A stretch of 64,000 nucleotides of DNA from an uncultured bacterium (GCA_964552465.1 CAZKGR010000018.1:6097-70096); one strand, 5' to 3'. Shown: positions 40,451 through 60,899, counted from the first letter of the stretch. Numbers and translations are program-made. Notes: a model not told the origin generated them from the sequence alone.

Positions 40451-41740
40451 GTGAAATATTTTCATATATCAGCACTTATCATCTTGTTGGCGATGACCGT
40501 TCCATTCGTTCATGCGCAGGACATGCAGGTGGTGGATCGGATTATCGCGGCTGTCGATGACGAGATTATCCTCGAGTCAGAAGTCTTGCAGTATGTGCAG
40601 GATATTGTGCTCCGCAACCGTGATGCCTATCGATCTGAAGAGAGCATCCTGGCACTACAGGCGCAAGTGCTCGACGAATTAATCAACCAGAAGATCCTAC
40701 TATCGATCGCAGAAAATGACACGAATATCGTCGTTGAAGACCGTCAGGTTGACCTGACCCTCGATGACCGAATCAATCAGGTTGTGCGTGAGGTCGGTGG
40801 GGAAGAGGCACTGGAAGAGTATTATGGCAAGCCAATTCGTCAGATCCGTCGTGATTTTCGTGATCAAGTGAGAAACAGCTTGCTCATTGAACGTGTTCGC
40901 AACTACCAGATTAGGTCAACGTCGATCACACGTGCGGAAGTTGAGGGATTTTATGATGAGGTGAAGCAAGAGTTGCCGGCAATCCCGGAACGTGTTCGAC
41001 TGGCACACATCCTGATCGAAATTGAACCAGCAGAGGATGCCCGCAATCAGGCAAAGACACGGGCCGACAGCCTGTTCAATCTCATTGCACAAGGTGCGGA
41101 TTTCGATTCGGTGGCGATGGAATTCTCTGACGACCGCGTAAGTGCGGCCAAGGGTGGATTACTGGGAACGACTCAACGCGGAGATCTCGTCCCCGATTTT
41201 GAAGCTGTCGCATATAATCTGGAAGAAGGCGAGATAAGTGAACCGATTCGCTCCAGATTTGGATTCCACATCATCCGATTGAATTGGCGACGTGGAGAAA
41301 AGATCAACACTCACCACATACTGGTTATGTTGCAAGCTACAGAAAGCGACAAGCAACGAGCAGTTGAAGAAGCACGTCTGCTGCGAGATCGTGCGTTGGC
41401 GGACGAAGAGTTTGCCGAAATCGCGAAAGAGCATTCCGCTGATGATGAAACTGCCAGACTCGGTGGTGATCTAGGGTGGTTTGATTTGGAATCCATCCCG
41501 GAACAGTTCCAACAGGTTGCTCGTGGCTTGGAGACTGGAGATGTAAGCGAACCATTCGAATCGCGCATCGGAATTCACCTGTTGACCGTCAGTCAACGGG
41601 ATGCAACCCGCGAATTTAACTTGATCAACGATTGGGACAGGATCAGCCGGATGGCGTTGCAGGAGAAGCAGGATCGCGAGTATTTCATGTGGTTGGAAGA
41701 ACAGCGCGAAACTGTTTACATCGAATTGATGATGGAATAA
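40451..41740 (+). CDS. surA: SurA-like periplasmic chaperone/PPIase
   Basis: VDRIIA.VDDEIIL.SEV; two parvulin domains (LAHIL, GG.LG...RG..VP.FE, SRFGFHII; HSAD..A..GGDLGW). Confidence 0.9.
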   Translation: MKYFHISALIILLAMTVPFVHAQDMQVVDRIIAAVDDEIILESEVLQYVQDIVLRNRDAYRSEESILALQAQVLDELINQKILLSIAENDTNIVVEDRQVDLTLDDRINQVVREVGGEEALEEYYGKPIRQIRRDFRDQVRNSLLIERVRNYQIRSTSITRAEVEGFYDEVKQELPAIPERVRLAHILIEIEPAEDARNQAKTRADSLFNLIAQGADFDSVAMEFSDDRVSAAKGGLLGTTQRGDLVPDFEAVAYNLEEGEISEPIRSRFGFHIIRLNWRRGEKINTHHILVMLQATESDKQRAVEEARLLRDRALADEEFAEIAKEHSADDETARLGGDLGWFDLESIPEQFQQVARGLETGDVSEPFESRIGIHLLTVSQRDATREFNLINDWDRISRMALQEKQDREYFMWLEEQRETVYIELMME

Positions 41741-41778
41741 CCAGCTACAATCTGTAGCTGGAAAAGATACTTTGAATC

Positions 41779-41799
41779 CCCGCATTTGCGGGTTTTTTT
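41779..41799 (+). terminator. Intrinsic terminator of the PPIase operon
   Basis: cccgca-tt-tgcggg followed by T7; a second hairpin ccagctaca-atc-tgtagctgg lies at 41741-41761. Confidence 0.8.
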
Positions 41800-41831
41800 A
41801 TTTGTCACCTTCCACCGGAAATGATAGTGAA

Positions 41832-43643
41832 TTATTGCGTAGAAGATGTAGAATCGAGCAATTCAAGCAATGAGCTTTCACCTGCAAGCAGCTCGTCTGG
41901 TGTGCCAATCTGCGCAACGCGCCCTTGGTCCAAAACAAGCACACGATCGGCCGCTCGAATTGTCGAGAGGCGGTGACTGATTAAAACTGCTGTACGACCG
42001 TTGAGCACGTTTTGTAAACGTGAAACGAGCGCGTGTTCGCTCTTGACATCAAGCGAGCTCGAAGGTTCATCAAGAATGACTACCTGTGAGGGTCTGACCA
42101 GAGCACGTGCGAGTGATAAGCGTTGCCACTGACCCTCGCTGAGATCGACGCTATGATCGAACCAGGTACCGAGCAAAGTGTCATAGCCGTGCGGCAAGCG
42201 GGGGATGAACTCGTCAACGCCTGCATCTTGGGCCGCTCGTAAGATTGCTTCCTCTGATGGCTGATGAGCGGTGTCACCGAGGGCGATATTTTCGCGCACT
42301 GAAGCGTGAAACCTGGCGAAGTCCTGGAAGATCACACTGTACAAACGGCGCAACTGATCCGGGTCGAAGTCACGAAGATCATGTCCATCCAGCGAGATAT
42401 TGCCAGATGTCGGGTCATGGAGCCGTGTCAGCAACTTAACGAGAGTTGTTTTACCTGATCCATTTGCACCAACGATGGCGAGAACTTCCGATGGCTTCAG
42501 ATCGAAAGACACATCCTGCAGCGCCCAGTCCTGGCGGTTCGGATAGCGGAAGGACACATTTTCAACCTTTATCCCAGTGATTAGGTCAGTGGGAACGGCT
42601 GCGGGAAGTGGTGGTGCTGTGATCTGAGGTTCACAGTCAAAGAACTCGAACAGGTTGCCGAGGAACAAGTTGTTCTGATACATGGCCGCGACACCGGTAA
42701 GAATTCGCTGGATCATCGAACCGCCTCGCGCCAGACCCTGAATTACAAGCACCAGCGAACCGATAGTGATCGAACCAACTACCGCATGCCACGATATGAA
42801 TGCATACAATCCGAGAATCACACTAGCGGAAATCGTCTTTGCAATCAATTCAAACCATGACTGCCGTGAGACAATATTCAGCTTTTCCTGCCGCAGTTTG
42901 TCCCGTTGCTGTTTGAACCGATCGCTGAACAACCCACCAAGACCGTAGAGGATCAGCTCTTTTGCGTAGTAAGTGCTGGTCAACACCCAGCTTGAATAAC
43001 GGGCTTGCCGCTCATCCTGGGTACGGCTGCGTTCCCATGCATACCAGCGACGTGAGTAATGCAAACGAATGAAGACGTCTGGCAGAACGGCAATAACGAG
43101 CGCCGGTCCGAGCACCCAATTAACCGAGATCAGCAAACCCGCCACGCCAGTGATCGCGATCAGGTTCTGAAACAGGCTGCCTGCCTCCTGGATCAAACGT
43201 CCGGGACGGGACAAAGCTTCCCGTTGAGCGCGGTGCAAGCTGTCGCGGAACTCGCTGTTCTCGTAGTAAGCAAGCCCGACTGTTATCGATTTACGATGGA
43301 TGCTGTCAAACAGATGGTCAGTAAACTTCTGGACGAGGTGTTGGCGCAACCAACCATCAACTGTTCCCGAACTGATCAGCAGCCAATAGGTTACACCCGC
43401 AGCTATCACGTACCGCATCACCTGGCTCAATCCTTGAGTCGGGTCGGGTAGCTCGATGGCCAGCACAATACTATCGACAATCCACTTGAACAACAGTAAC
43501 TGTACCAGCGGCAAAATGCCACGGAAGATGGAGAAAATCGTGTAGGCTGTGGCCTGCTGCGGGGCGTGCAGCCACAGCATGCGAAGCAGCCGTCCGAGTG
43601 GACGTGCATTTGATGATTTGATTTGCTCAGTATCGAGTGTCAT
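41832..43643 (-). CDS. ABC exporter (TMD+NBD), peptide/RiPP-export type
   Basis: Six-TM domain; GANGSGKT, IFQDF, LSEGQWQRL.LAR, ILDEPSSSLD, ISHRLST. Confidence 0.92.
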   Translation of the reverse strand: MTLDTEQIKSSNARPLGRLLRMLWLHAPQQATAYTIFSIFRGILPLVQLLLFKWIVDSIVLAIELPDPTQGLSQVMRYVIAAGVTYWLLISSGTVDGWLRQHLVQKFTDHLFDSIHRKSITVGLAYYENSEFRDSLHRAQREALSRPGRLIQEAGSLFQNLIAITGVAGLLISVNWVLGPALVIAVLPDVFIRLHYSRRWYAWERSRTQDERQARYSSWVLTSTYYAKELILYGLGGLFSDRFKQQRDKLRQEKLNIVSRQSWFELIAKTISASVILGLYAFISWHAVVGSITIGSLVLVIQGLARGGSMIQRILTGVAAMYQNNLFLGNLFEFFDCEPQITAPPLPAAVPTDLITGIKVENVSFRYPNRQDWALQDVSFDLKPSEVLAIVGANGSGKTTLVKLLTRLHDPTSGNISLDGHDLRDFDPDQLRRLYSVIFQDFARFHASVRENIALGDTAHQPSEEAILRAAQDAGVDEFIPRLPHGYDTLLGTWFDHSVDLSEGQWQRLSLARALVRPSQVVILDEPSSSLDVKSEHALVSRLQNVLNGRTAVLISHRLSTIRAADRVLVLDQGRVAQIGTPDELLAGESSLLELLDSTSSTQ

Positions 43644-43750
43644 GCGACTCCAGCGGACTTCAGTATTCCTTGATCACAACGCGAACAAGGTACAACAACT
43701 GATATTCAATCGCGACAGGTGAGAACAACAAACAGGTTTACTTGATTCTG

Positions 43751-44644
43751 CTAACGTGAGGGTACATCAAGGTATGGCTGCAGTATTTCCCAGAATGGAT
43801 CCTCGAGGGTCAAGTCAAGTAGAATCCCCCTCAACGAACGTGAGTACCGTTCAGATTGCTCAAATACTCGTTTCCGAACTTGAGTGAGATCTGGAGGAGG
43901 CAATGATGTCCAGGCTCGACGGAATATTTGTTCGCACGCTTGCTTCAGATAGTTCGACGTGGCGGCGTGCTGCAATTGTTCGAGCGAAACCTTCTGCGCC
44001 TGACGAAGGAAGACAACAGTATGAATTGGAATTGCGGTTGTTGACGGCCAAACCTGGTCGATATTGCGTAATACCAGATCACTCCATGTCGGCATCGGAT
44101 GAGCGAACAACCCCGCATCAGTCTGCACCAACCAGCACTCATCATCGTTGACCGTTTCCCATTCGGACGGGAGACGTCGCATCGTAGTAGATTTGCCAGT
44201 CCCTCCCGGCGCGGCAAAGAGAACACCTTTTTCACCATACACACCCAGCCCGGCATGGATAGGCAGATTCCCAGCCCGCAAAAGAGCAGGGTAGAGGGGA
44301 TACTGACCGTACCACATACTCATCAACCAATCCTTACGATTGGAACGATCTGGAACCTCATAAACATGTGTTTCTGTCCCTGGGAGTGTGTACACGCGTA
44401 ATGGCCCCAAGTCGAACTCGTTGCACTGAGTTTGATTTGTTCCCAAAAAGGTCAGGCAGGCATCAAGTTCGGTATGCGTGACAACGTATATAGTCCATTT
44501 ATCGGCCTGGTTATTTCCTTCCTCTGACGGCAGAGAGAGAACCGAAGCAAACTTCCGTAGCCAATCAATCCCAGCTGAAACGGCTCGAAAAGTCCAGCGG
44601 GTTTCATCAGCAAGAACAAGTGAAACCGACAAATCAGTCGTCAT
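43751..44644 (-). CDS. SynChlorMet cassette ScmC-like protein (HPr kinase-like P-loop)
   Basis: L.LADETRW N-terminus; PIHAG, GVLFAAPGGTGKST..RRLP..W....DDEC.LV, AHPMPTWSD; adjacent to a PqqD gene. Confidence 0.75.
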   Translation of the reverse strand: MTTDLSVSLVLADETRWTFRAVSAGIDWLRKFASVLSLPSEEGNNQADKWTIYVVTHTELDACLTFLGTNQTQCNEFDLGPLRVYTLPGTETHVYEVPDRSNRKDWLMSMWYGQYPLYPALLRAGNLPIHAGLGVYGEKGVLFAAPGGTGKSTTMRRLPSEWETVNDDECWLVQTDAGLFAHPMPTWSDLVLRNIDQVWPSTTAIPIHTVVFLRQAQKVSLEQLQHAATSNYLKQACEQIFRRAWTSLPPPDLTQVRKRVFEQSERYSRSLRGILLDLTLEDPFWEILQPYLDVPSR

Positions 44645-44915
44645 GGTAAATAAGTTTGTTCTGAATCAGGCTGTCGATGAACTCCTCAACATCCTGCTTG
44701 AGTGTGGTTGGAGGGGGAACAAAAAAAACCTGCAATTGCGCGATGATTTCTTCAGGGGTTATCCCCTCATGAATCATGGCCCAAATGCGGGTTCCAAGAC
44801 TGTTTATGCTGTAGGCCCGGTCTGTTCCGGGGTGGTACAACACTCCACCGCTAGTTGAATCATCGCGAAAAACAACGGAGGATTCTGTCACGAGGACAGA
44901 AGAGTTACCTGGCAT
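44634..44915 (-). CDS. PqqD family RiPP recognition element (ScmD-like)
   Basis: VVFR......GVLYHP.T...YSIN.LG..IW.MI......EEI..L........L..DV.EFI..L....LI. Confidence 0.88.
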   Translation of the reverse strand: MPGNSSVLVTESSVVFRDDSTSGGVLYHPGTDRAYSINSLGTRIWAMIHEGITPEEIIAQLQVFFVPPPTTLKQDVEEFIDSLIQNKLIYHDD

Positions 44916-44930
44916 GGGAACGTCGCCCGA

Positions 44931-45101
44931 TTACAACCACTCAAACGAATCCGACTCCTGCTGTTGATCCTGCCTCTTCTCTTCACCATCCCCCGGATCG
45001 TTCTGCGCCGGTGGGTCCGGTTCAGAAAACCCATGGGCAACGTCGAGGAGCAAGGAAAGCTCAGTAAGCAGGGGTTTATCATATCCCACGCTTTTCTTCA
45101 C
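44931..45101 (-). CDS. Putative RiPP precursor peptide, 56 aa
   Basis: AGGAGG RBS 5 nt before GTG 45101; MKKSVGYDKPLLTELSLLLDVAHG-FSEPDPPAQNDPGDGEEKRQDQQQESDSFEWL; YxxPxL RRE-binding motif; 15 nt upstream of the PqqD gene. Confidence 0.75.
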   Translation of the reverse strand: MKKSVGYDKPLLTELSLLLDVAHGFSEPDPPAQNDPGDGEEKRQDQQQESDSFEWL

Positions 45102-45702
45102 GAGTGCCTCCTGATACAATATCAATTCGAATTCGATGGTGTGAAAGTCGTGCACTAAGAATTGTAACACGCATCAGCACCGAATATGCTGCTAAAATAT
45201 CCTCAATGCACCCCCTAAACACACCAAGAGCTCTCATCTCGGGTGATTTCGCGACTGACAATCGGACCATTGAAAATTGTCGGTGCATCAGATTTTTAAA
45301 AATCCGACATCTGCTCTTCAATAGCAATGACGCAGATCACAGGAAACGTCGATCAAGAGATGTAAAGAGAGGCATGGCCTCAAACGATGGCTCGAGGGTA
45401 CTCTGGAACAATTTCAGAACTATCTTGTTGTGCTTAAGCTCTGGACCGAGTACATTCCGTTGGATGTCGGCGCGAATTTCTAATACTTACTCCGAGTCCG
45501 AAGAATTTGATGCCGATAATGTGTTCTCCAACACAGCAAATTGCAATTCAGGCATGTAGATTTTTGGAATCTTGCTTGAGTAAATTGATGCGATGCACCT
45601 TGTCCGATGTCCAGTGACCGATAACTACATGATGACGGAGTACACTATTTCGTGTTCTACGCGTCGTTTACCTGCTGTTCTAACAATCAGGGAGACTTTA
45701 TC

Positions 45703-48102
45703 ATGAGGTCTTCGATTCTCTTTGTTAGCATTTTGGTCGTCTTCGTTTTGCTGACAGCTATTCCTGTACAGGCACAGATCAACAACGCCGACTTTGAAAA
45801 CTGGACGGGTGATAATCCAGATAGTTGGACGATCGTTGAAACTGGCAACAATGAGGTCCGCGAGGACGCGTTCGCGTACAGCGGATCAGCTTCTGCTGAG
45901 TTGGTGTGCCCGTCATATTCACGTCCGCGATTGGTCCAGTATATCAATGTTGAGGCGAACGAGGCGGTAACGGCCAATTTGTTCGTGTATGACAACGAAG
46001 CATCATACACACGCTTGTATCTAAAAGTGTATGACAATGACGGATTGCTGCTTCTTCAAGATTATGACCAGTCTGCAAACTCTGGAAGCTGGCAGGCGTT
46101 AAACGTTGATCTTGTAACTCCCGCAAGTTCCGCGGAAATCAAATTTGAAGTCATCTATTTCTATGACACAGGCACCCCAGGAACGCAGACGAACTACATC
46201 GACTTTGCAGAAATCACGATTAGCGTTCCGACATTTGCCAACATCGAAAACCCTGGTTTGGAAGATTGGACTGGTGGCGTACCTGACAGCTGGACGGTGA
46301 TCGAACCCCTTAACAGCGATGTTCAGCAGGAAACTGGCACTGTCTACGAGGGTTCGTATTCTGCTTCCGTTACCTCGACAGCCTATGTACGTCCACGAAT
46401 GGTACAATTCCTGGGTGTGTATCCAGGTGACACGGTTACCGGACGTGTACAGATTCTTGATAACGATCCTTCTTTGCCGCGCCTGTATCTGAAAGCTTAC
46501 GACTACGATGGTACACTGATTCAGCAGAGTTTTGCATCTGCGACCAACAATGCTGCATGGCAGAATGTTGAGACAACGTTGGTAACACCATCAACAACGG
46601 CTTATGTCAAATTTGAAATCATCCAATTCTACAACACTACGTCAGGTGGTACACAAACCATCTATGTGGATGCTGCCGAGTACGAAGTAGACACATACAC
46701 ATTCGATGTCAGTACTGCCAACCAGTGGTACTTCATAGGTCCTCCAGTGGACATAACTGACCAGGGGGATAGAAACGCAGACCAGCTGTTCAGCGATGAC
46801 CTCGGCGGAGCGAGTACATCCTCCACATGGGTCATGAGCCGTTGGAACAACACGACTCAAGCGTATGAGCGCTTTGGTAATGGTGATGGCGATCCGCTCA
46901 CGGAACCGCCAGATATTGAACCGGGTATTGGATACTGGTTTGTTCAGGATGTGGAACCTGGAGTTTCCGATCCCTGGCTGGACATCACCAGTGCCCAGAC
47001 ATCAACTGGTGCTCCTTCTTCAGACGTTACCCAAGACATCATTGGGCAGACTGGAGGCGAGAACGGTGTCACCATGTTGGCAAACCCGTTCTACGGTGAT
47101 TTCACTGTCTCAGCGTCGGTTCTGACCGCAAGTGGTTCTCCCTCTGACTGGGGGCAGGACGGAATAAACTCAAACATTTACACGTGGGATGGGTCACAGT
47201 ATCTCATCCAGCTTGCTGAATCTGCCACACTTGGCATGTGGGACGGATTCTGGGTTGTCAAAACGACCACGGGTGATGGTGACATTACATTTACCTACGA
47301 TAGCGGTGACCACGGTCCAGTCATTGATGACTACTTCGTTGAAACCGGTTGGGGATTGCAGCTCTGCGTTGAGTCTCTGGATGGTACATATCTTGATACC
47401 TACAACGAGCTCGGAGTCCGTGATCGTTCGTTAGATGGCTACGATAGCTACGATGCCTTCGAAATGACGCCACCGAGTTCCAGATATGTCAGCCTTGCGT
47501 TTACCCATGAAAACTGGGATGAAGGACGCCGGTTTGCACATGACTATCGTGACAAAGAATTTGATCGGGATAGCTGGAACTTTGAGATAAAAGCCCGTCG
47601 TCTGCCGAACAGCTCATTCAGACTCTATTGGCCTGCGTTGCAAGGAGTCCCAGGAAATATCGAGTTCGAACTGTACCGTTACAATCAACAGAGTATTGTT
47701 CGAGTTGGACTATTGAGTGAGCTCGATGACTACGTCTTCACGGTCGGTGATGAGGATGTTGAGGTCGTTAGATTCCGCATCATTGCCTTAGATCAAGACC
47801 TGGTAGCCAGCGTTGACGAACCTGGTGCTGAACTACCGGTTGAGTTCGGCATACATTCAGCCTATCCGAATCCGTTCAACGCGCAGATATCCATCAAAAT
47901 GGGACTGCCGGATGCGGGTAACGCTACAATGACGGTGTTTGACATTCTGGGTCGCGAGGTCGCCAGCTTACATAACGGACACTTGAACGCTGGTTCCCAT
48001 ACGTTCACGTGGGAAGCGAAAGATCACGCGTCAGGCATCTACTTCCTCCGCTTGTCGTCTGGTGAACAGGTTTCGCATCGCAAAGTGACTCTACTTCAGT
48101 AG
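45703..48102 (+). CDS. T9SS cargo with two tandem CBM4/9-like jelly-roll domains and CTD
   Basis: Signal peptide (VQA|QI); two ~150-aa repeats (N..FE.W.G..PD.W ... YID.AE); AYPNPFNA...SGIYFLRL...RKVTLLQ. Confidence 0.8.
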   Translation: MRSSILFVSILVVFVLLTAIPVQAQINNADFENWTGDNPDSWTIVETGNNEVREDAFAYSGSASAELVCPSYSRPRLVQYINVEANEAVTANLFVYDNEASYTRLYLKVYDNDGLLLLQDYDQSANSGSWQALNVDLVTPASSAEIKFEVIYFYDTGTPGTQTNYIDFAEITISVPTFANIENPGLEDWTGGVPDSWTVIEPLNSDVQQETGTVYEGSYSASVTSTAYVRPRMVQFLGVYPGDTVTGRVQILDNDPSLPRLYLKAYDYDGTLIQQSFASATNNAAWQNVETTLVTPSTTAYVKFEIIQFYNTTSGGTQTIYVDAAEYEVDTYTFDVSTANQWYFIGPPVDITDQGDRNADQLFSDDLGGASTSSTWVMSRWNNTTQAYERFGNGDGDPLTEPPDIEPGIGYWFVQDVEPGVSDPWLDITSAQTSTGAPSSDVTQDIIGQTGGENGVTMLANPFYGDFTVSASVLTASGSPSDWGQDGINSNIYTWDGSQYLIQLAESATLGMWDGFWVVKTTTGDGDITFTYDSGDHGPVIDDYFVETGWGLQLCVESLDGTYLDTYNELGVRDRSLDGYDSYDAFEMTPPSSRYVSLAFTHENWDEGRRFAHDYRDKEFDRDSWNFEIKARRLPNSSFRLYWPALQGVPGNIEFELYRYNQQSIVRVGLLSELDDYVFTVGDEDVEVVRFRIIALDQDLVASVDEPGAELPVEFGIHSAYPNPFNAQISIKMGLPDAGNATMTVFDILGREVASLHNGHLNAGSHTFTWEAKDHASGIYFLRLSSGEQVSHRKVTLLQ

Positions 48103-48126
48103 TCACTGGCGAAAGCTTGAATTTCC

Positions 48127-48159
48127 AAACGCTCATCCCAACTGGGGATGGGCGTTTTT
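48127..48159 (+). terminator. Intrinsic terminator
   Basis: aaacgctcatccc-aactg-gggatgggcgttt plus further T's, after the 48102 stop. Confidence 0.85.
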
Positions 48160-48277
48160 CATCATTTTCGTGTATTGCGCAGCGTCACACATGTATCTAT
48201 TGTATTTTACGAACTTAAGGTAACTATACTCAGACTCATCAGAAGATTCCAATTACGTATGTGTGCATACATGAGGT

Positions 48278-49927
48278 TTGCCAGATATGTTGAACGGTCA
48301 ATCTGAAACGAATATGAGTTCAATGAAACTCACCTATAACGGCGGCAGCATGCGCTCGCTGTTTCGCCAGGGGGATCGTTTACGTGTACAGCCATGTCTG
48401 GTGACCGATGTCCGGGCTGGGGATGTCATTGTTTATCTAAATCGTTCACGAGACAGACATGTTGTGCATAGAGTAATGCACATTCTGTCTAGCGGCTTTG
48501 AGACTAGAGGTGATGATCGAATTACTGCTGACAAGGAACTGGTAATACCCGATCAGTTTGTCGGACGTGTGATAGCAGTCTGGAGATCACATTCATGGAA
48601 ACCTGTACGGGGAGGTATAGTTGGATTAATTCGGTCAAGACTTTGGCAGTCAATGAGAATGGTGCATCATTCTGTACTCACACGCTCCATACGCATGGAG
48701 AGTGCAACTTCACCTGTTTCCAACCCTGATGTCATTTTACTCCCACATTGGCTTCTTCAACTGCTTCAATCTTGCCTCAGAGGTACTCTACAAAGTGAGA
48801 TAAACAAGATTCCAGAGAATGTCTGGCCAAGTCTGGTGGCGCTTGCATCCAGACAAGATCTTGCCCCTTTTATTTATGCCAATCTGAATCAGCAGGATGC
48901 GTTGGACGAGCTTCCAGCAAGCGCACAAAAACAACTTCATCATTTGCACCAGAATTCTTGGATTGCGCAGCAACGTTTAATGACTGCACATACTTCCATC
49001 ACACATGCTCTGAATGAAGCAAGTATCGACAGCATTTCTCTAAAGGGATTGTGGTTTGCGCACTCGCTCTACGAGGATCCAGCATCTCGCCCGATGGTTG
49101 ATATTGATCTGCTTGTCCGTCCTGAACAGCTGACTGCAGCGACCGATGTGTTCATCGAGCTGGGATACGTCTCTATCCAGGAACATGATTCCGTTTCGCT
49201 TGAAAAAGAAATCTGGCTGTATCATCCGGAACGTCGAATCAAGGTTGACCTGCACCAGGATCTGATACCCTATTACTCAGATCTTACGTGGGATACATCA
49301 GAATGCTGGACTCGTGCCATACAAGCGGATTTGGAAGGACAACCGATTCAGGTGTTGAGTCTCGAAGACCAAATGATGCATATAATCCTTCATGGTTCCT
49401 TCGAACACCTGTTTCAGCCGCATAAAGTACTTCTGGATGCATACCTGGCAATTCAGACCTGGGGAGCAGAGGTTGATTGGAAGCGAGTCAGGGAGAGGGC
49501 AGAGACTATTGGACTAGGGCATGCACTTGACCTAATGGTTGTAACTCTACGACGTGCTTTCGACGATCACAGCATGACTCTTCCTGCACCAATCAGACAT
49601 GTTCCTGCTGACGGAGTTCGCTGGTTACTCTATACCGCGCCGATTCTCCATCCACCATCGTTGCTTCATCTGTATGCCGGACGTGACTACTTGTTCTACG
49701 TCCTGAAGCGTGCTCGCCAACTGGCGACCTTCCTTCGAAGTGGGGTACAGTCTCAAGGTGGGATACAGGTTACTCGTTCTAAACCAAAAATGGTTGCCAA
49801 AACTATTATTAGACGGATGTTCACGTTGAGTGGGCTGACCGCAGGATTTCTTTATGGCTCCATTCGCCACCCATCCCGCAAGCAGTTTATCTTCCTCAAG
49901 CTGCTCAATTGGCTGAGTCATCGCTAA
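48278..49927 (+). CDS. Fusion of S24/S26 peptidase domain and RiPP-associated nucleotidyltransferase (NTP_transf_5-like)
   Basis: N-terminal GGSM..F..GD.L.V...GDVIVY...VVHRV......ETRGD; C-terminal W..L...A..Q.L.P, LKG...A..LY.....RPM.DIDLLV, VDLH. One uninterrupted frame; start uncertain (48278/48287/48314). Confidence 0.82.
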   Translation: MPDMLNGQSETNMSSMKLTYNGGSMRSLFRQGDRLRVQPCLVTDVRAGDVIVYLNRSRDRHVVHRVMHILSSGFETRGDDRITADKELVIPDQFVGRVIAVWRSHSWKPVRGGIVGLIRSRLWQSMRMVHHSVLTRSIRMESATSPVSNPDVILLPHWLLQLLQSCLRGTLQSEINKIPENVWPSLVALASRQDLAPFIYANLNQQDALDELPASAQKQLHHLHQNSWIAQQRLMTAHTSITHALNEASIDSISLKGLWFAHSLYEDPASRPMVDIDLLVRPEQLTAATDVFIELGYVSIQEHDSVSLEKEIWLYHPERRIKVDLHQDLIPYYSDLTWDTSECWTRAIQADLEGQPIQVLSLEDQMMHIILHGSFEHLFQPHKVLLDAYLAIQTWGAEVDWKRVRERAETIGLGHALDLMVVTLRRAFDDHSMTLPAPIRHVPADGVRWLLYTAPILHPPSLLHLYAGRDYLFYVLKRARQLATFLRSGVQSQGGIQVTRSKPKMVAKTIIRRMFTLSGLTAGFLYGSIRHPSRKQFIFLKLLNWLSHR

Positions 49928-50009
49928 AATCTGGTGAACTCGGTGACCTATCAGGAAAGTTCTCAGTGCACTATATGGTTACAGTGCATGTTTCATTTCA
50001 TAGTAGCTG

Positions 50010-52253
50010 CTATCCATCCCCAGGTTGGCTTGCATTAAACCGAAGCTCAAGCCGGAAAGTCCGCCCAGGACGTATCGCCTGACCCCAATCCAGATGTTCC
50101 TGATATGCACTATCCAGCAGGTTTTCGATGCCCAGACGGAAGACAAGCATGTCATTGAGTTTCCATTGACCTTGAACGTCGACCACAGCGTAGGCAGGAG
50201 AATGGTTTTCGCCATTTATAATTGATGGATTGTCTCTTTCAAGCGACCCACGTAACCGGAGATTTCCACTAAACGTTAATCCTGTCCAGCGTAACATCAT
50301 ATGACCGCGCAATGGTGAGAGGTTCGGGAGGTTATCATCCTCATCCATTAATCTGCCATGCTGCAGGCTGGCTCCAGCAACTATCAGCCACCTCGAGTAA
50401 ATTGGCTGCAACAAGGATATTTCCATCCCTTGAAGGTAGGCGCGAGAAGCATTGATATACTGTTTCCAACCATTTGCGAATGGAACGGTCACATCAGATT
50501 CAGCAATCTGACCATAGATGTAGTCGGCAAACTGATTGTGGAAAATGGAAACATCAATTCGTGAAGCGTTTACACGAATACTATTTCGCCATTCCCACTG
50601 ATGGGACTGTTCACGCTGAATGTGAGGATTTCCAGAGTACAGGAATCCGTCCGAAGCCACATATAAGTAGTAGCCATATGCTTCTGTGGAATTTGGGGCC
50701 CGCATTGCATACGCATAGCTGAATCCAGTTTCGATCATGCTGGAAATTTGCCAATCCACTCCGAACGAACCACCCGTCAGTGGATCATTTCGCGTGTCCG
50801 GGGCTGACGGATCAGACAACCTAAGTTGCTGAATGCCTTGCTCGTCGTTAGCACTTGTGTTGACATAATCCTGCCGGAATGAACCATGAAACTTATATGG
50901 ACCACGCTGATGCTGCAGACTGAACCACGCACCTGCTGACGAGGTCTGTACATCTGGCCAGGTTACGAGATACATCTCGGCAGATCCATCGGGGTACATC
51001 GTCATATCTGCGAATTGCCGTGTTTGAAACGCTTCGAGTCTCGTCAGCACTTGCCAGCCAGAAGCAGGACGGTGACTGGATTCGATAGTGCCACCTGATG
51101 TTCTGGTCCAACCCGGCATATCCATATGCATGCTCATCAGCAATTCGGTCCGAGTTGCATCATCCATCCAATGATCCACACGGTTGTGATATAAAGAAGC
51201 ACTCAGTTTCTCTATCCAATGCGCAGGTTGCTGAGCGCTCCAACGAGCTGAACCAGCCCTGAAACGTGCATATCCAACGTCCATTGGTAGAGCAGCGTAT
51301 CCCATGTCCCAGGCATCATCCGTCTGAACCAGCAGATCGAGCTGTTGTCGTTGAGTTAATCCAACTCGAACTGTTCCATAAAGGTTGAGTTTCTCATGAC
51401 CGGAGAACGGTTGTGTCCCTTGAGGAGTGCGATAATTACCGGCTTGCTGGTAAGCTGCCCTGAGTCGGTAGGAAATGTGAGATGAAGAACTGCCCAAATA
51501 CGCACTGCCGCGGGTTGATGCGAGAGCGTCAGCGTAAGAAACCGAGGCTCCATAATCAAGTCGCGAGTTTTCAGACAGTGGCTGGGAAACATGATTAAGA
51601 TTGATACTACCCCCAACCATGGCGCCATCTCTGGTATCAACGGCACCCATGCGAAGGGTCGCCTCGCCTAAAGCATCCAGATCAACATAGCTGGTTGCAG
51701 GATCCATTCGATCTGTACAGGCCCCATGAACTCGCATTCCATCCACGAGCAATAGTATCTGACCACCATTCATTCCGCGAATAGAAGGCTCTTGACCAAA
51801 TGCGCCTCGCCGCATCAAGCTTATTCCTTCCACTGATTCAAGAGCTTGTTCAGTGGTGGATATGCCCGTTTGGTAGCGATTAAATCTGAAAGACTCCATG
51901 TTCACGGATTCTCCCAGTACCACAACCTTTTCCAGCTCAAGTCCTCGTATCTGCAAAGCAATTTCAATATCATCACGAAGCTGAGCAGAGTTCAGAGTTA
52001 GTGGCTTGTACCCAAGCAGCGAAAAAGTGACTTGATTCGATGCAGCAGGAAATCTAATCCAGAATTTTCCATCAGAATCAGAGACTGTCCCCCTCGCGCA
52101 TCCGTCAATCATCAGACCGACATGCGCGAGGGGTTCGCCAGTATCTGCATCTACTACTCTTCCACTAACGTGGAACTCGTTTGCGATTAGTGCAGGCGAG
52201 TAGAGTAACAGAAACACTGAAACCAATAGAATATTTCGGATGTTTAGTGGCAC
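50010..52253 (-). CDS. TonB-dependent copper receptor (OprC/NosA-like) with N-terminal carboxypeptidase-regulatory-like domain
   Basis: RRGAFG.EP.IRG, DGMRV.GACTDRMDP.TSY (CxxxM), Met-rich LLMSMHMDMPG, ENLLD..Y.EH, PGR.F.L.L. Confidence 0.85.
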   Translation of the reverse strand: MPLNIRNILLVSVFLLLYSPALIANEFHVSGRVVDADTGEPLAHVGLMIDGCARGTVSDSDGKFWIRFPAASNQVTFSLLGYKPLTLNSAQLRDDIEIALQIRGLELEKVVVLGESVNMESFRFNRYQTGISTTEQALESVEGISLMRRGAFGQEPSIRGMNGGQILLLVDGMRVHGACTDRMDPATSYVDLDALGEATLRMGAVDTRDGAMVGGSINLNHVSQPLSENSRLDYGASVSYADALASTRGSAYLGSSSSHISYRLRAAYQQAGNYRTPQGTQPFSGHEKLNLYGTVRVGLTQRQQLDLLVQTDDAWDMGYAALPMDVGYARFRAGSARWSAQQPAHWIEKLSASLYHNRVDHWMDDATRTELLMSMHMDMPGWTRTSGGTIESSHRPASGWQVLTRLEAFQTRQFADMTMYPDGSAEMYLVTWPDVQTSSAGAWFSLQHQRGPYKFHGSFRQDYVNTSANDEQGIQQLRLSDPSAPDTRNDPLTGGSFGVDWQISSMIETGFSYAYAMRAPNSTEAYGYYLYVASDGFLYSGNPHIQREQSHQWEWRNSIRVNASRIDVSIFHNQFADYIYGQIAESDVTVPFANGWKQYINASRAYLQGMEISLLQPIYSRWLIVAGASLQHGRLMDEDDNLPNLSPLRGHMMLRWTGLTFSGNLRLRGSLERDNPSIINGENHSPAYAVVDVQGQWKLNDMLVFRLGIENLLDSAYQEHLDWGQAIRPGRTFRLELRFNASQPGDG

Positions 52254-52537: not shown

Positions 52538-53362
52538 CTACACATCCTGCTTCCTGAACAGAATGATCGAGGCGAGGATTGGAAGCACAATCCAGGCCAC
52601 CAATGACGCATATCCGATCAGGGTTGCAGTGGTCTCTGATCCGGTCATCTTGATCAATGTCGCGCCTGCCGGTCCGAAGAGGTGCGGCCCGCCGACAGCC
52701 AGAAGTGAGAGAACTCTTGTCAAATCTATCGGATTGAGCAGAAGCCCGACCAGCAGGATGATCTTTAACGCGGACGGTGTGAAATAAAGAGTACTGCCCA
52801 ACATCAGGGTGCCGTATAGCACTTCGAAAAACAACCACACTCCTAACGCAATCCCAAAAGCCACCTGACGTCTGGATGACAGCAACGCGATTAATACAGA
52901 TAACGCAGCAAAAACCACACTCAGCAACGTTGAATGAAGCACGACTTCCAGGTAACGAAGCGCGCCATCAGTTCCCACGCTAATCGCGGTTATCGCACCC
53001 GGTAATCCAAAGCCCAGAATGGACGCGGCGACAATTGTCATAACCAACCCGAGCAATTTTCCCAATAAAACCTGATCGCGGGATATTGGTTGAACGACAA
53101 GAAACTCCAAGTATTGTCGATGTGCGAGAAAGCTGAAAACTCCCACTATCAACGCAAATAACGGCAGCATGAAGCCCGACAGATTTACCAGACTGGCGGC
53201 GGTGCGAATAAAATCCTGTATTCCCACATACCCTGAGGTGACCATTCCCAGATAGGCGATGAGCAGGGTCAACACTGTAAATACTATCGCAAAGGTCAAC
53301 ACCCAGCGGTTGCGAACGTTGATCAGGAATTCCTGACGAGCAATGAGGAGTAGCCCATTCAT
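52538..53362 (-). CDS. nosY: ABC permease NosY
   Basis: IARQEF....RNRW, QPISR..VLLGK..G, LNP.D..R, six TMs; nos context. Confidence 0.88.
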   Translation of the reverse strand: MNGLLLIARQEFLINVRNRWVLTFAIVFTVLTLLIAYLGMVTSGYVGIQDFIRTAASLVNLSGFMLPLFALIVGVFSFLAHRQYLEFLVVQPISRDQVLLGKLLGLVMTIVAASILGFGLPGAITAISVGTDGALRYLEVVLHSTLLSVVFAALSVLIALLSSRRQVAFGIALGVWLFFEVLYGTLMLGSTLYFTPSALKIILLVGLLLNPIDLTRVLSLLAVGGPHLFGPAGATLIKMTGSETTATLIGYASLVAWIVLPILASIILFRKQDV

Positions 53363-54108
53363 AGTTGCCCTTCCTCATCAGTGTGTGCTCCGGCTACACG
53401 TATCATACCATAACTAAATCCAGTTTCATCCACTATTGGAAATCCAGCGCCAGGTAGCGTCAACAGCAGCCTGATTTCAACCATCTCGTCTGCATCGGGA
53501 AGCGTTAAGGCAGCCATGTTCGAGTAACCGCGAACCGACAGCACTTTACCAGCGAGTTCAGGTTCGTATGCGAGGCGCAGCAGCAGCAAATTCCCTTTCT
53601 CCGCTTCGATCAGATCCGGTTGCATGCCGACAGGGGACAGGGAGGCTTCAACGATCAGATCAGGATTTCCTCGCAGCGTCTGAAACCCTATCCAATCGGT
53701 GACGACCTCATCGTCGTATGCTGAAAACGAGTCTGCCGCATCGGTCGATGAAAAGCAAACAACCTGTCCATTCATCACGGTCGGAACGTGGTTCGTCAAA
53801 ACCATCACCACTGAGTCCGCCGAAACAAGCGCGGACGTGTTGTAGTCCGCCAAGTAGATGTCTGAGTCACGTATGACGAAAGACTTGGGAAGAGATTCAA
53901 TGTGTCGAAGCATGCACTTGGGCGAGTCGTAGGTGAGGAACTCACCCCCGACCACCATCCCACTCGCATGATTAACCTGATCGATGTTCATGTTGCAGGT
54001 ATGGCAAACATCAATTCCCGAATAAATTTGAATTCTCGGTTCTGATGCGCAACCAGCCAGCAGGATGGCGAACACGACCACGAGAAATGACTGTTTCATG
54101 GAATTCAT
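53359..54108 (-). CDS. nosL: NosL copper chaperone lipoprotein with ~110-aa C-terminal extension
   Basis: Lipobox LAGC; D.CHTCNMNI, YDSPKCM, VPTVMNG..V.F. Confidence 0.82.
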   Translation of the reverse strand: MNSMKQSFLVVVFAILLAGCASEPRIQIYSGIDVCHTCNMNIDQVNHASGMVVGGEFLTYDSPKCMLRHIESLPKSFVIRDSDIYLADYNTSALVSADSVVMVLTNHVPTVMNGQVVCFSSTDAADSFSAYDDEVVTDWIGFQTLRGNPDLIVEASLSPVGMQPDLIEAEKGNLLLLRLAYEPELAGKVLSVRGYSNMAALTLPDADEMVEIRLLLTLPGAGFPIVDETGFSYGMIRVAGAHTDEEGQL

Positions 54109-55052
54109 GTGCGCTCCAGGTCTTCCTTTGATGTGAATTGGTCAGACAACAGTGAATCCCAATCAGGATTTTCGGTACGGAACTCCTCAATCTGTCCGCC
54201 TGCTGCTTCAATGGCTTTGATCACATGCAGACGCTGCTCAGGATTAGCACGGAAGGACATTCGGTAGCCGTTCTGGTCTGTTAATCTCGCGCCAGCTTCA
54301 CAGGCTGCAGAGATTAATTTCTCTGATGTCTGCTGAAGTACGAGGTGGACCTCCGTTTCATTCTGGACGGCTTCGTAAAAGTCAGGCACAGATTCAACCG
54401 TAGCAATTTTACCGTCGTTCACAATAGCTACTCGATCCGCCAACTGCAGAGCATCTCTAATGATATGCGATGTAAAAAGTATGGTTGCGCCCCGACCTTT
54501 AAGCTGTCCAATCAACTTTCGAAACTGTTCAGTTCCAAGTGGATCAAGGTTCAATGTTGGTTCATCCAAAACGTAAAACGGAACTTCAGGCAGGAAGCAA
54601 ATAGACAAGGCTAATCGTTGAATCATCCCACCCGAATACTCCTGTACACGACGATCAGCGGCATCCTGCAATGAAAAGAAGGTGATCATTTCTTCGACAC
54701 GATCAGCCTTACAATCCCGCAGTTCCGCAGAGAGGAACAGCAATTCACGAGCGGTCAGCATTCCGGGAAAATCAATGCGCTGTGGTAAATATGAAAGAAC
54801 GTGTTTGATCTTATCGACTTGTTTCCGAACGTTCATTCCAGCGACTTCGATCGTCCCGCTAGTCGGGTGGATTGCACCCACAACTGCACGTATGATTGTC
54901 GATTTACCACCGCCATTTGGCCCGAGCAATGCAAGCGCCTCACCCTCAGACACATCCAGGTCGCTGGGTTTTACTGCATGGATCTTCCCAAATCGTTTTT
55001 CAAGCGACTTTATTCTCAGATATGGCATATCCTGGTCTGTTCCCGTCTTCAT
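54105..55052 (-). CDS. nosF: ABC ATP-binding protein NosF
   Basis: GPNGGGKS, YLPQR, YSGGM.QRL, LDEPT..LDP.G, TSH; between nosD and nosL. Confidence 0.88.
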   Translation of the reverse strand: MKTGTDQDMPYLRIKSLEKRFGKIHAVKPSDLDVSEGEALALLGPNGGGKSTIIRAVVGAIHPTSGTIEVAGMNVRKQVDKIKHVLSYLPQRIDFPGMLTARELLFLSAELRDCKADRVEEMITFFSLQDAADRRVQEYSGGMIQRLALSICFLPEVPFYVLDEPTLNLDPLGTEQFRKLIGQLKGRGATILFTSHIIRDALQLADRVAIVNDGKIATVESVPDFYEAVQNETEVHLVLQQTSEKLISAACEAGARLTDQNGYRMSFRANPEQRLHVIKAIEAAGGQIEEFRTENPDWDSLLSDQFTSKEDLERT

Positions 55053-56473
55053 TTGCGCCGTCTCCCAAGCCTGCCCACACTCATCAATCCTCCAAACAAG
55101 CCAAAGCTCACCACAACGTACAGGACGGCAGCCGAATGATTCTGATCACCAAGTTCATCTAACTCTTCCCACGGGACAGCCGAATTCTCTATCGGGCGAA
55201 TGACCGGTTGTTCGTCAACAGCTTCACCAAACTTCAGAATTGGCAAGGTCCTTTCCGCTATCTCGAGAATTGCCGCAGCAGGGCTCAACAGATAGTAACG
55301 TACTTCAGGTACGCTGCCCTCCATCACCTGGAATACGTTCTGAATATCAAATGGAATTTCCCCGATTCCATCACTATCCAAATCATAACCGTCGTAGCTA
55401 CTCCAGTGATTGCCACCATCTGAATCTGACCAGTTTGTTTCGCGGTCGGTCACATCAACAAGTAGTTCACTCAAATTGTTGATGAAATTATTGGATGCGA
55501 ACACATTCCCATCCGACCCACCATTCATCTGGATGGCCAAGTCGTTATCAACCACATCATTACCGACGATCATATTCTGACTGCTATTGTTGACGAAGAT
55601 TCCTCGGCTGTTATCATAGATCAGATTATCATACGCGTAGGTCTTATCCATGGACTGATACAAGATTCCGTATGCCCGGAATCCACGACAATGAGCAAAG
55701 ATGTTACGTTCAAAGAGGATATTGTGCGAGTACATTAGTGCCGCGCCCGCGACGTTCAGAATGAAAGTGTTGTCCTCGAACGTGTTGTAATTGGAGTACA
55801 TGTAGTGAAGGCCATAGCGAACATGATGAATCTTATTGTGTTGAATGTCTGTTGAGTCTGCGAACGAGAAATAGATCCCGTCTCTCACATTTAGGATTTC
55901 ATTGTTCCGAACAAGGTTGTTCTTGGAGTACCAGAGGTGAATTCCATTCCCACGATCCGATTCAATCAAGTCTAATCGACCTTCGATACGGTTGTTTTCG
56001 ATTATTGTACTATTGCCCTGCTTTACATAAATACCGTGAAGCGGCCTGGTGACCTGGCAATTTCTGATCACGACAGAATCAGCTTCAACGAGTATAGCAG
56101 CATGATCTTTGGTCAGCCGTTCTCCCGCTTCAGATATGTGCAAACCATCCAAAACAGCACCCGGGGCAGTCAGGTGGACAACATGACCCACGTAACCACC
56201 CCGGATGTGTGGTAGATCAAAACCAGTTATTACTACAGGTACATCAACAACGATCTGCTCCAAGTATTCACCTGGAGCCAGCCACACAGTGTCACCTGAT
56301 GCAGCTGTACGGATAGCAGAGGAGATGCTTTCGCCGGATTGAACGGAAATTCGCGCGGCTGTTCCATAGGTTGGAACCATCAGAACTGACAACGTGATGG
56401 CTACAGCCAATTGCATAACTCTCAGCCGGTGGAAAGCGCAAACTCCATTCATGAATAGCGATTTCCTCTCCAT
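55049..56473 (-). CDS. nosD: Nitrous oxide reductase maturation protein NosD
   Basis: Right-handed beta-helix (CASH) repeats; RGNGIHLW, RDGIYFSF, VRYGLHYMYS, GGNHWS.Y.G.DLD.DG.G..P. Start uncertain. Confidence 0.92.
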   Translation of the reverse strand: MERKSLFMNGVCAFHRLRVMQLAVAITLSVLMVPTYGTAARISVQSGESISSAIRTAASGDTVWLAPGEYLEQIVVDVPVVITGFDLPHIRGGYVGHVVHLTAPGAVLDGLHISEAGERLTKDHAAILVEADSVVIRNCQVTRPLHGIYVKQGNSTIIENNRIEGRLDLIESDRGNGIHLWYSKNNLVRNNEILNVRDGIYFSFADSTDIQHNKIHHVRYGLHYMYSNYNTFEDNTFILNVAGAALMYSHNILFERNIFAHCRGFRAYGILYQSMDKTYAYDNLIYDNSRGIFVNNSSQNMIVGNDVVDNDLAIQMNGGSDGNVFASNNFINNLSELLVDVTDRETNWSDSDGGNHWSSYDGYDLDSDGIGEIPFDIQNVFQVMEGSVPEVRYYLLSPAAAILEIAERTLPILKFGEAVDEQPVIRPIENSAVPWEELDELGDQNHSAAVLYVVVSFGLFGGLMSVGRLGRRRK

Positions 56474-56480
56474 TACAGGC

Positions 56481-56978
56481 TCATCCAGCGATTCTGCGTA
56501 ATTCTGAATCGACCATGGAATTGGTTCGGACGCCAGCAACACCTGTTTTTACCAGCAGCTGCCAAACTTCTTCCATATCGAGGAAGAGCTGTTTGTCGAA
56601 GTTGCCAGCAGCGCGACGTGTCTTGCAGTCTTCATAAAGTGTCAACGCGGCTGTCAGCTGAACGACGGTATCATCCCACTCCTCGTGAAGTGTCGGGCTG
56701 AAACGGGTACCGTACTGTTCAAATCCTGCTGTTATGTAAGCAGCGATAGGATTGATCACGTTCAGCACTTGCAGGATCTCGATGTCTTTGTTATGAACCT
56801 TGGCTTCCCAATCGGTGACCGAAGACACGTTCATCGGCGCGGGAATTTCAAGCGCAGCAGGTGTCTCGTAAGTAAGAGTAGGAAGCTGTGATGCCGATTC
56901 CTGCGGGGCATCAGCTTGCTGAGTACCGCAGCCCACAAGCAGGCCGAATATCAACAGAAGCAATGTTAATCGAAGCAT
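56481..56978 (-). CDS. Hypothetical helical lipoprotein in the nos operon
   Basis: GGGAGG RBS before ATG 56978; lipobox LVGC; all-helical sequence; no recognisable family. Confidence 0.75.
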   Translation of the reverse strand: MLRLTLLLLIFGLLVGCGTQQADAPQESASQLPTLTYETPAALEIPAPMNVSSVTDWEAKVHNKDIEILQVLNVINPIAAYITAGFEQYGTRFSPTLHEEWDDTVVQLTAALTLYEDCKTRRAAGNFDKQLFLDMEEVWQLLVKTGVAGVRTNSMVDSELRRIAG

Positions 56979-57012
56979 GTAACCTCCCTGTCTGGGGGTA
57001 ATTGCGTAAACT

Positions 57013-60892: not shown

Positions 60893-60899
60893 CTCTGCC

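Follow-up and report, generated by a model that had tools for sequence, protein, structure and literature searches.

We analysed a six-gene cassette located in a 64,000-nt stretch of DNA from an uncultured bacterium (GCA_964552465.1, CAZKGR010000018.1:6097-70096; the whole of this 64-kb stretch is referred to below as the window). The cassette probably directs the production of a linear, leader-cleaved, Ser-phosphorylated and exported ribosomal peptide, and would functionally belong with the linear polyphosphorylated peptides (LPPs) encoded by lppA-K-B-S-D-N of Paenibacillus alginolyticus DSM5050 (Popov et al., Nat Commun 2026, published May 2026; PMC13381572). By descent, as judged from sequence, it is a branch of the SynChlorMet (SCM) cassette family without radical SAM (rSAM) enzymes. 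Our confidence in the nucleotidyltransferase (NTase) step and in the exact sites of modification and cleavage is lower than in this core scheme. The first-pass annotation of this DNA, whose gene calls were all recovered at their positions, had envisaged an undescribed class of peptides made by ribosomes and modified after translation (RiPPs); that place is already taken by the LPPs, which have the domain signature of the cassette and were described in May 2026 (PMC13381572). The mechanism which it proposed (a linear peptide, Ser phosphorylation, leader removal by an S26 peptidase, and export) agrees with the LPP set of P. alginolyticus, except that the NTase step is only possible. What looks new is (i) the occurrence of the cassette outside Bacillota, (ii) the peptidase-NTase fusion, (iii) the acidic, Cys-free core of the precursor, and (iv) a co-conserved type IX secretion system (T9SS) partner protein.

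The published domain table of LPP clusters lists TIGR02228, PqqD, NTP_transf_5 and TIGR02203/4, with kinases assigned to TIGR04249 (67 occurrences), TIGR04352 (65) and TIGR04355 (11), and includes cyclase-free, single-kinase neighbourhoods whose kinase is TIGR04249 (PMC13381572). The window contains the corresponding set, namely a discrete PqqD-type RiPP recognition element (RRE), a TIGR04249 HprK-like kinase, a TIGR02228-type peptidase domain, NTP_transf_5 and an MsbA-like exporter. As the first-pass annotation had noticed, ring-forming enzymes are absent, with no rSAM enzyme, lasso cyclase (macrolactam synthetase) or B2 protease encoded in the 64 kb; neither of the latter two was found among the called genes of the related loci L001-L006 (loci encoding relatives of the kinase are designated L with a number). 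Pfam scans of the large open reading frames (ORFs) of the window detected no rSAM, asparagine-synthase-like or transglutaminase domain, and CxxxCxxC proteins were not found across the 64 kb.

In the LPP system, heterologously expressed LppK places up to four phosphates on Ser3 of the core, deletion of lppS abolishes leader removal, the unphosphorylated precursor is poorly cleaved, and LppS requires LppB and is inactive as the S29A, H68A and D93A variants (PMC13381572). The window cassette shares with this system the same cyclase-free domain set and a Ser residue placed 2-3 residues past the predicted cleavage site, comparable to Ser3 of LPPs. The LPPs are restricted to Bacillota according to their authors (PMC13381572), whereas the window cassette lies outside Bacillota, in a T9SS-bearing lineage whose nearest distant relatives are found in Ca. 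Electryoneota (FCB group). Further differences are that peptidase and NTase form one polypeptide in the window, that the core is acidic and Pro-rich instead of Gly/Asn/Lys-rich, and that the neighbour is a T9SS cargo gene, whereas LPP clusters sit in capsule and biofilm loci (PMC13381572).

The precursor gene, whose GTG start codon is preceded by an AGGAGG ribosome-binding site (RBS) 5 nt upstream, encodes the predicted leader MKKSVGYDKPLLTELSLLLDVAHG followed by the predicted core FSEPDPPAQNDPGDGEEKRQDQQQESDSFEWL (56 aa in total). The leader carries a YxxPxL motif in the form YDKPLL, and the core, with a predicted length of ~32 aa, is acidic, Pro-rich and devoid of Cys; the other precursors of the window clade likewise contain 0 Cys. 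A precursor is kept in every one of the related loci L001-L009, with the consensus KSVGY(E/D)KPLLxELS(L/M)LxDxAHGFSEPDPP, a variable acidic stretch and then a (Q)ESDS(F/Y)(E/D)WL C-terminus. Comparison of the window with these relatives revealed 8-13 synonymous and 3-5 non-synonymous differences in the 28 leader codons, and 3-4 synonymous and 0-1 non-synonymous differences in the last 9 codons. The predominance of synonymous changes indicates that the small ORF encodes a translated peptide under purifying selection. Pfam and NCBIfam yielded no match for the three small ORFs upstream of the PqqD gene. Related precursors are also encoded in the distant loci L012, L014, L071, L088 (which has two precursor-PqqD pairs) and L090.

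The leader junction follows a simple pattern. In all 12 distinct precursors from loci that carry the T9SS partner gene (T9SS-type loci) the leader ends with (A/V)-x-G, 18-20 residues from the Tyr or Phe of the leader motif (the endings AHG, AKG, ALG, VKG, AQG, ARG and AVG were observed). Where such loci also encode an S26 peptidase, the junction is followed by an aromatic residue or Val, and then by Ser at position +2 or +3 (FSEP, YSPEP, WSEPP, FSG, YGSEP, VGSEF); in the precursor of L071 this Ser is the sole Ser/Thr residue of the entire peptide. Similarly, in 19 canonical SCM precursors Gly always precedes the Cys-rich core, with Ala, Gly, Thr or Val at -3. A small residue at -3 and -1 is the pattern recognised by type I signal peptidases, and the small-x-Gly junction fits this rule. 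On the basis of this pattern, leader cleavage is predicted at or near A22-H23-G24/F25 (the slash marks the junction here and below), and Ser26, within G-F-S-E-P just past the end of the leader, is most likely the phospho-acceptor, given its conservation and the analogy with Ser3 of LPPs.

The PqqD-type RRE (PF05402 at 7e-13) found its best match in the PDB in the lasso RRE TbiB1 (5V1U, 2.7e-7). BLASTP comparison with LppB, whose sequence, as well as those of LppS and LppA, was taken from Supplementary Data 1 of PMC13381572, gave a gapless alignment (21% identity, E 9e-6) in which N38, D75 and F79 are paired with N33, D70 and F74. In the crystal structure of LppB the latter residues keep the kink at the Pro in place, form a hydrogen bond to the Tyr of the leader and enclose the Pro of YxxP from both sides (PMC13381572); the presence of their equivalents fits the Tyr-type leader YDKPLL.

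The ScmC-family protein scores 147.9 bits with TIGR04249, above the curated equivalog cut-off of 125. Its invariant or near-invariant residues are H130, G150, K151 and T153 of the P-loop APGGTGKST, D167-D168-E169, and H182-P-x-P-T-W-S188. The top structure retrieved with a profile of the family was HPrK/P (1JB1, E 1.3e-3), with the His, the P-loop and the DD motif aligned, while Foldseek with the AlphaFold2 (AF2) model (pLDDT 94) placed phosphoenolpyruvate (PEP) carboxykinases on top (E 5e-10, TM about 0.5). In structure, PEP carboxykinase is known to be related to the catalytic domain of HPrK/P. Taken with the analogy to LppK, the conserved residues and the modelled fold point to the ScmC-family protein as the presumed Ser kinase of the precursor.

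The S26 domain of the fusion protein (aa ~13-105) matches TIGR02228 (sigpep_I_arch) over aa 17-99 at 2e-13 (50.5 bits, just below the cut-off of 51.85). All 65 distinct homologues from the loci keep residues G22, S24, M25, D49, H64, R65, G78, D79 and D85 unchanged. BLASTP alignment with LppS covers 93 residues (23% identity, E 4e-7) and brings S24, H64 and D85 opposite the LppS residues S29, H68 and D93. The domain has no signal peptide or N-terminal transmembrane segment and is joined to an NTase of cytoplasmic type; it is presumably a cytoplasmic, RRE-dependent leader peptidase resembling LppS. A match to NF046067 SipW (1.8e-5) was also obtained, and the domain belongs to the same fold family as the archaeal/ER-type (SipW/Sec11-type) signal peptidase I and has its Ser-His-Asp catalytic residues. 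Sec11 has two Asp residues spaced 6 apart, as are D79 and D85. In contrast to these enzymes, the window domain is cytoplasmic and NTase-fused, with neither a membrane anchor nor a signal-peptide substrate. For the start of the fusion gene there are two candidates, TTG at 48278 and ATG at 48287, the latter chosen by the gene caller.

The LppN/PsmN-like NTase domain (NTP_transf_5, PF14907; aa 181-428, 3.2e-46) keeps G257, D275 and D277 of a GS...DxD motif in 42 of 43 sequences. The motif is of the same kind as that mutated in PsmN, whose D134A/D136A exchange abolished hexose addition to phosphorylated pseudomycoidin. Fusion of S26 with NTP_transf_5 is found in the window clade and, independently, in the Omnitrophica locus L034 (10840-12831), and fusions of ScmC with S26 in L062, L066, L076 and L082. 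This recurrence of fusions in other lineages suggests a joint action of kinase, peptidase and NTase on the precursor while it is bound to the RRE. In L012 (Ca. Tariuqbacter arcticus metagenome-assembled genome, MAG) the NTP_transf_5 gene (11481-12703) is split into two overlapping ORFs, which may reflect a frameshift or an assembly error.

The transporter (ABC_tran PF00005 at 8e-31, plus PF00664) has the MsbA models TIGR02204/TIGR02203 as its top NCBIfam matches (1e-79, well under the equivalog cut-offs), and no C39 peptidase domain was detected in it by the Pfam and NCBIfam scans. It was found in all loci of the window clade and in most related cassettes, and is presumed, from its sequence type, to export the mature peptide.

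These components may be arranged into a pathway. The RRE would bind the 56-aa precursor through YDKPLL, as suggested by its conserved binding residues, and the ScmC-family kinase would then phosphorylate, possibly repeatedly, a Ser of the core, likeliest Ser26, in the manner of LppK acting on Ser3. The cytoplasmic S26 domain (Ser24/His64/Asp85) would cut the RRE-presented leader near A22-H23-G24/F25, as LppS and the small-x-Gly junction imply, and the fused NTP_transf_5 domain might add a hexose (as does PsmN) or a nucleotide to the phosphate. The MsbA-like half-transporter would move the acidic core of ~32 aa across the inner membrane. Speculatively, the product may cooperate at the cell envelope with the T9SS-secreted protein that is conserved along with the cassette. 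Of these steps, that of the NTase is the least secure, because LppN was inactive in the heterologous system of the published work. The features of the cassette are collected in Table 1.

Table 1. Features of the cassette, with positions counted from the first nucleotide of the window
Feature	Position	Strand	Size	Remarks
Cassette interval	41832-49927			four minus-strand genes and two plus-strand genes
ABC exporter	41832-43643	-	603 aa	MsbA-like half-transporter, transmembrane plus nucleotide-binding domains; LppD-like
ScmC-family kinase	43751-44644	-	297 aa	TIGR04249; HPr-kinase/PEPCK-like P-loop; LppK-like
PqqD-type RRE	44634-44915	-	93 aa	PF05402; discrete; LppB/B1-like
Precursor peptide	44931-45101	-	56 aa	GTG at 45101, stop at 44931
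Conserved non-coding block, candidate promoter	45153-45216	-		upstream of precursor
T9SS cargo protein	45703-48102	+	799 aa	from ATG 45703; Por_Secre_tail
S26 peptidase-NTP_transf_5 fusion	48278-49927	+	549 aa	from TTG 48278

Transcription of the minus-strand genes proceeds in the order precursor, PqqD, ScmC and ABC exporter, and the PqqD gene overlaps the start of ScmC by 11 nt.

In a full HMMER search the relatives of the window ScmC fell into ~1,070 clusters (representatives at 50% identity), among which its own clade is isolated, the next representatives being only about 30-35% identical. We examined 80 genomic and 80 metagenomic loci that encode relatives, inspecting 10 kb on either side; their ORFs were queried with the proteins of the window and with an rSAM HMM derived from the same loci. 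The metagenome scan yielded nothing close to the window clade (best match about 35% identical). The collection of homologous cassettes, which had been proposed as a check on the first-pass annotation, showed that L001-L009 (ScmC 52-76% identical to that of the window) keep the six-gene unit of NTase fusion, T9SS protein(s), small ORF, PqqD, ScmC and ABC exporter, even where, as in L005, the flanks are rearranged. No rSAM gene was found within these 10-kb flanks in L001-L009, the HMM search detected none within 7 kb of ScmC in L007-L009 and L012-L015, and no asparagine-synthase-like or transglutaminase-like gene was present among the called genes of L001-L006.

The SCM cassette is defined by the models TIGR04248-TIGR04251, which describe the PqqD protein ScmD, ScmC, and the rSAM/SPASM proteins ScmE and ScmF; the searchable literature describes no product of it. 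Among the relatives of ScmC, the common layout comprises PqqD, two rSAM genes, the precursor, ScmC and a free-standing S26-like protein of ~200 aa, often with an ABC exporter of ~605 aa and an NTP_transf_5 protein of ~410 aa. In 42 of the 60 loci with full context ScmC lies beside two rSAM genes, and in these 42 loci PqqD was present in 38, S26 in 37, and NTP_transf_5 and the ABC exporter in 23 each. The S26, NTase and exporter genes, which the first-pass annotation took for unusual additions to ScmC/ScmD, are thus regular members of SCM cassettes. Examples of canonical SCM cassettes with an S26-like peptidase, an MsbA-like exporter and NTP_transf_5 by ScmC are L016, L070, L072 (Methanocella) and L086. 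By gene content, canonical SCM cassettes appear to be the LPP core plus two rSAM/SPASM enzymes, a connection not made in the LPP report, whose main text and supplements do not mention rSAM enzymes (PMC13381572).

The window cassette shares with SCM the TIGR04249 kinase, the YEKPxL-type leader motif, the small-x-Gly junction and the S26/ABC/NTP_transf_5 partners; in rSAM loci the leader carries (Y/F)E(K/R/P)PxL and a core rich in Cys and Gly comes after the junction. It differs in lacking both rSAM/SPASM enzymes (ScmE, ScmF), in having a Cys-free precursor, and in its PqqD protein, which scores only 29.5 bits with TIGR04248 (ScmD; cut-off 100), the lasso PqqD models scoring equally weakly. The loss of the rSAM genes therefore coincides with the loss of the presumed Cys substrates from the precursor, which argues against rSAM genes encoded elsewhere. 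A single MAG holds both a T9SS-type cassette without rSAM (L013) and a separate canonical rSAM cassette (L045), with distinct types of precursor.

The relatives also include some deviating loci. In L013, L015 and L087 a 160-aa polytopic membrane protein, which may be an alternative leader protease, occupies the usual position of S26 (e.g. L013 10907-11389), and the precursor junction reads ALG/DTGFGNEPPPP. In the ScmC-S26-PqqD locus L022 of an Acidobacteriota MAG, which lacks rSAM, the precursor (9434-9694) has a core of (GHSGSS)n repeats that looks like a candidate substrate for multi-site phosphorylation.

The first-pass annotation treated the T9SS gene as an intervening one. It is instead a conserved partner of the cassette: a homologue (E<1e-30) accompanies 10 of 18 cassettes without rSAM and 0 of 63 with rSAM (81 cassettes with a PqqD gene; Fisher's exact p = 2e-8, uncorrected for phylogeny). 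The gene immediately upstream of the precursor encodes a T9SS homologue in L012 and L014, both of Ca. Electryoneota (FCB group), and in L013, L015 and L071, and such homologues flank the cassette in L088 and L090 (E 1e-44 to 3e-64). In these seven distant T9SS-type loci the gene order is unlike that of the window and the kinases are 25-30% identical. All-against-all comparison of 10 T9SS-type loci revealed five shared families (T9SS protein, ScmC, S26/NTP_transf_5, PqqD and ABC), each present in 8-10 of the loci. Two tandem paralogous T9SS partner genes were seen in L002/L003 (4180-6162 and 6490-8907), L013, L015 and L088.

The T9SS protein carries Por_Secre_tail (PF18962 at 3.8e-12); its ORF extends over 45652-48102 (+), and a conserved RBS (GGAGAC) followed by ATG places the true start at 45703. 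The protein has a signal peptide and two beta-sandwich repeats resembling CBM4/9, followed by a central domain of ~370 aa that is uncharacterised and spans aa ~333-708 of the mature protein, and by a C-terminal domain (CTD). Weak CBM_4_9 Pfam records were obtained for the orthologues of L002 and, faintly, L005. Matches to the homologues of L012-L015 cover aa ~350-815 and the match to the truncated copy of L071 about 505-816 (E 1e-36 to 1e-66), and the matched span thus corresponds to the central domain and the CTD. In the AF2 model (pLDDT 49) the central domain falls below 50, and a profile search of the PDB with 14 T9SS homologues retrieved a match to the CTD only and none for the central domain. 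A literature search joining T9SS and RiPPs gave nothing relevant. Three more T9SS CTD proteins are encoded at 2-814, 933-2405 and 6069-8657 of the window, one of them with LVIVD repeats; they share only the CTD with the partner protein of the cassette, and their presence indicates that the organism uses type IX secretion widely.

Two families of known phosphorylated peptides invite comparison. Phospeptin is reportedly phosphorylated by a kinase of lanthipeptide-synthetase type, in an unrelated pathway. The available part of its description presents it as a poly-phosphorylated non-canonical RiPP of an uncultivated marine bacterium, Ca. Eudoremicrobium, and in that part makes no mention of an HPrK-like kinase, an S26 peptidase or NTP_transf_5 (Paoli et al., Nature 2022; PMC9259500). 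Closer are the phosphorylated lasso peptides (paeninodin with PadeK; pseudomycoidin with PsmK/PsmN), with which the window cassette shares the HPrK-like kinase (adding several phosphates to one Ser), the NTP_transf_5 protein with a DxD motif (PsmN, needed for hexose addition to the phosphate), the type of RRE and the (Y/W)xxP leader. These resemblances, among them the lasso-like RRE (TbiB1 match) and a YxxPxL leader typical of phosphorylated lasso clusters, would be explained if the cassette were the tailoring part of a paeninodin-type lasso pathway with its cyclase and B2 protease encoded elsewhere. We regard this as extremely unlikely, as neither the window nor the called genes of L001-L006 include an asparagine-synthase-like or transglutaminase-like gene, and a dedicated leader peptidase of the serine S26 type stands, as in LPPs, in place of B2, the cysteine protease of lasso pathways. 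The predicted acceptor Ser, unlike that of the phosphorylated lasso peptides, is not C-terminal. Moreover, the predicted core begins with FSEPDPPAQ, in which the only acidic residues among the first 9 are at positions 3 and 5, leaving no Asp/Glu at 7-9 for ring closure; this test depends on the cleavage site, because a cut after Ala22 would give HGFSEPDPP, with Asp at position 7.

Other explanations relate to the chemistry and to the substrate. The ScmC score above the TIGR04249 equivalog cut-off, and the two rSAM genes adjoining ScmC in 42 of 60 full-context loci, would be consistent with an incomplete or split SCM cassette whose peptide is cross-linked by unlinked rSAM/SPASM enzymes, and the inspection of the relatives covered 10-kb flanks. 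We consider this distinctly unlikely: the precursors of the window clade are Cys-free, whereas the rSAM-linked ones are Cys-rich; no rSAM gene was found in the window or near the relatives within the distances given above; and the MAG with L013 and L045 maintains the two kinds of cassette side by side, each with its own type of precursor. The phosphorylation could also be transient, followed by elimination to dehydroalanine or by another step leading to a non-phosphorylated final product. Such kinase-then-elimination logic is known from class III/IV lanthipeptides. This is unlikely in our assessment, since the Pfam and NCBIfam scans found no lyase or cyclase domain in the cassette, there is no Cys for Michael addition, and the phosphorylated forms are stable products in LPP and pseudomycoidin. 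The final product of the LPP pathway is still unknown, which speaks for transience, and the Bacillota LPP loci, with TIGR04249 kinases and no rSAM, speak against a split SCM cassette (PMC13381572). Finally, the enzymes might act on the T9SS protein or on another protein, with the small ORF as a regulator or adaptor. The tight co-conservation of the T9SS gene would agree with this, as would its probable co-transcription with the fusion (same strand, a gap of 175 nt and no terminator-like site in between). It is nevertheless very unlikely, as the small ORF encodes a leader of the canonical RRE-binding kind, with a division into leader and core that recurs in about 30 SCM-type precursors, the T9SS protein has a Sec signal peptide while the S26 domain belongs to a cytoplasmic-type fusion without signal peptide or transmembrane segment, and a small peptide is the demonstrated substrate in the LPP system (PMC13381572).

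Several observations weigh against the assignment of the cassette to an exported LPP-type phosphopeptide. Each step of the pathway rests on homology or conservation, and the peptidase domain and the RRE share only 23% and 21% identity, respectively, with their characterised LPP counterparts; LppB itself (9X8Z) was absent from the PDB matches of the window RRE. Of the LPP consensus YxxPxVLxHQxIxFET/xxS, the window precursor has YxxPxL and the nearby Ser, and the HQxIxFET half is replaced by ...LLLDVAHG/FS. The exact cleavage site is ambiguous, as a cut after Ala22 would give the same Tyr(-16) spacing as in LppA, with the Ser at +4. The junction/Ser rule is not universal, because the subgroup L013, L015 and L087 lacks both the S26 gene and the Ser at +2/+3. 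In addition, LppN had no detectable effect in the heterologous system (PMC13381572), and rSAM or cyclase genes may be located in the genomes of the relatives beyond the 10-kb flanks.

The intergenic region between the divergent genes (45102-45702) contains three conserved blocks within an otherwise variable spacer of 600 nt. A segment of ~60 nt (45216-45153, minus strand) is near-invariant across five loci, the flanking intergenic DNA being variable, and TGTTACAAT at its end (45169-45161) is likely, from its sequence, to be the extended -10 element of a candidate promoter of the precursor operon. The second block, TGTGATCTGCGTCATTGC (near 45330-45350), resembles a CRP/FNR-type half-palindrome, and the third is AAAAATCTAC. 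An Rfam scan of 41000-51000 (E<=1) returned no match. The ORF 45104-45559 (+, 151 aa) was rejected as a gene, as the intergenic conservation occurs in short blocks broken by indels.

The remainder of the window is of a housekeeping character (SurA/PpiC chaperones, a TonB receptor, a nosZ-DFYL cluster, PriA, Der and SelA). Since the GC content is unremarkable and the SurA/PpiC flank is syntenic in relatives, recent horizontal acquisition of the cassette was rejected. The nitrous-oxide reductase cluster (52538-59616 and 59675-62396, both minus strand) comprises nosZ with a cupredoxin C-terminus, NosD, an ABC ATPase, NosL and an ABC-2 permease, with cytochrome c and cytochrome b genes directly past it; in L001 the NosD-to-permease part, without nosZ, is syntenic beside the cassette. 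Two adjacent large PPDK_N (PEP/pyruvate-binding) proteins are encoded at 26770-31885 (-), apparently unrelated to the cassette, and the one of 1066 aa has a C-terminal NTP_transf_2 domain in addition.

An LPP-type assignment of the window cassette would extend such RiPPs past Bacillota into uncultivated Gram-negative lineages of FCB type. It would also connect the SCM cassette, which has had no product assignment since its definition, to the annotation of LPPs; if SCM is the LPP core plus two rSAM enzymes, SCM peptides are predicted to be both phosphorylated and cross-linked, with ScmC as the kinase. The working of the fused enzymes as one complex may help to explain the silence of LppN in heterologous expression.

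The pairing with a T9SS cargo protein provides a testable lead to the biological role of these peptides. A doubtful but attractive possibility is that the exported phosphopeptide and the T9SS protein form a two-part surface system, in which the central domain of ~370 aa binds the polyanionic peptide or the peptide is joined covalently to the cargo; in the covalent variant, the free N-terminus generated by the S26 domain would be joined to the cargo during sortase-type processing by the T9SS. If this were true, the RiPP would act as a ligand of, or an anchor for, a protein which its producer itself secretes, and not as an antibiotic, and the parallel with the Bacillota LPP clusters in capsule and biofilm loci would point to a common role in the envelope or matrix.

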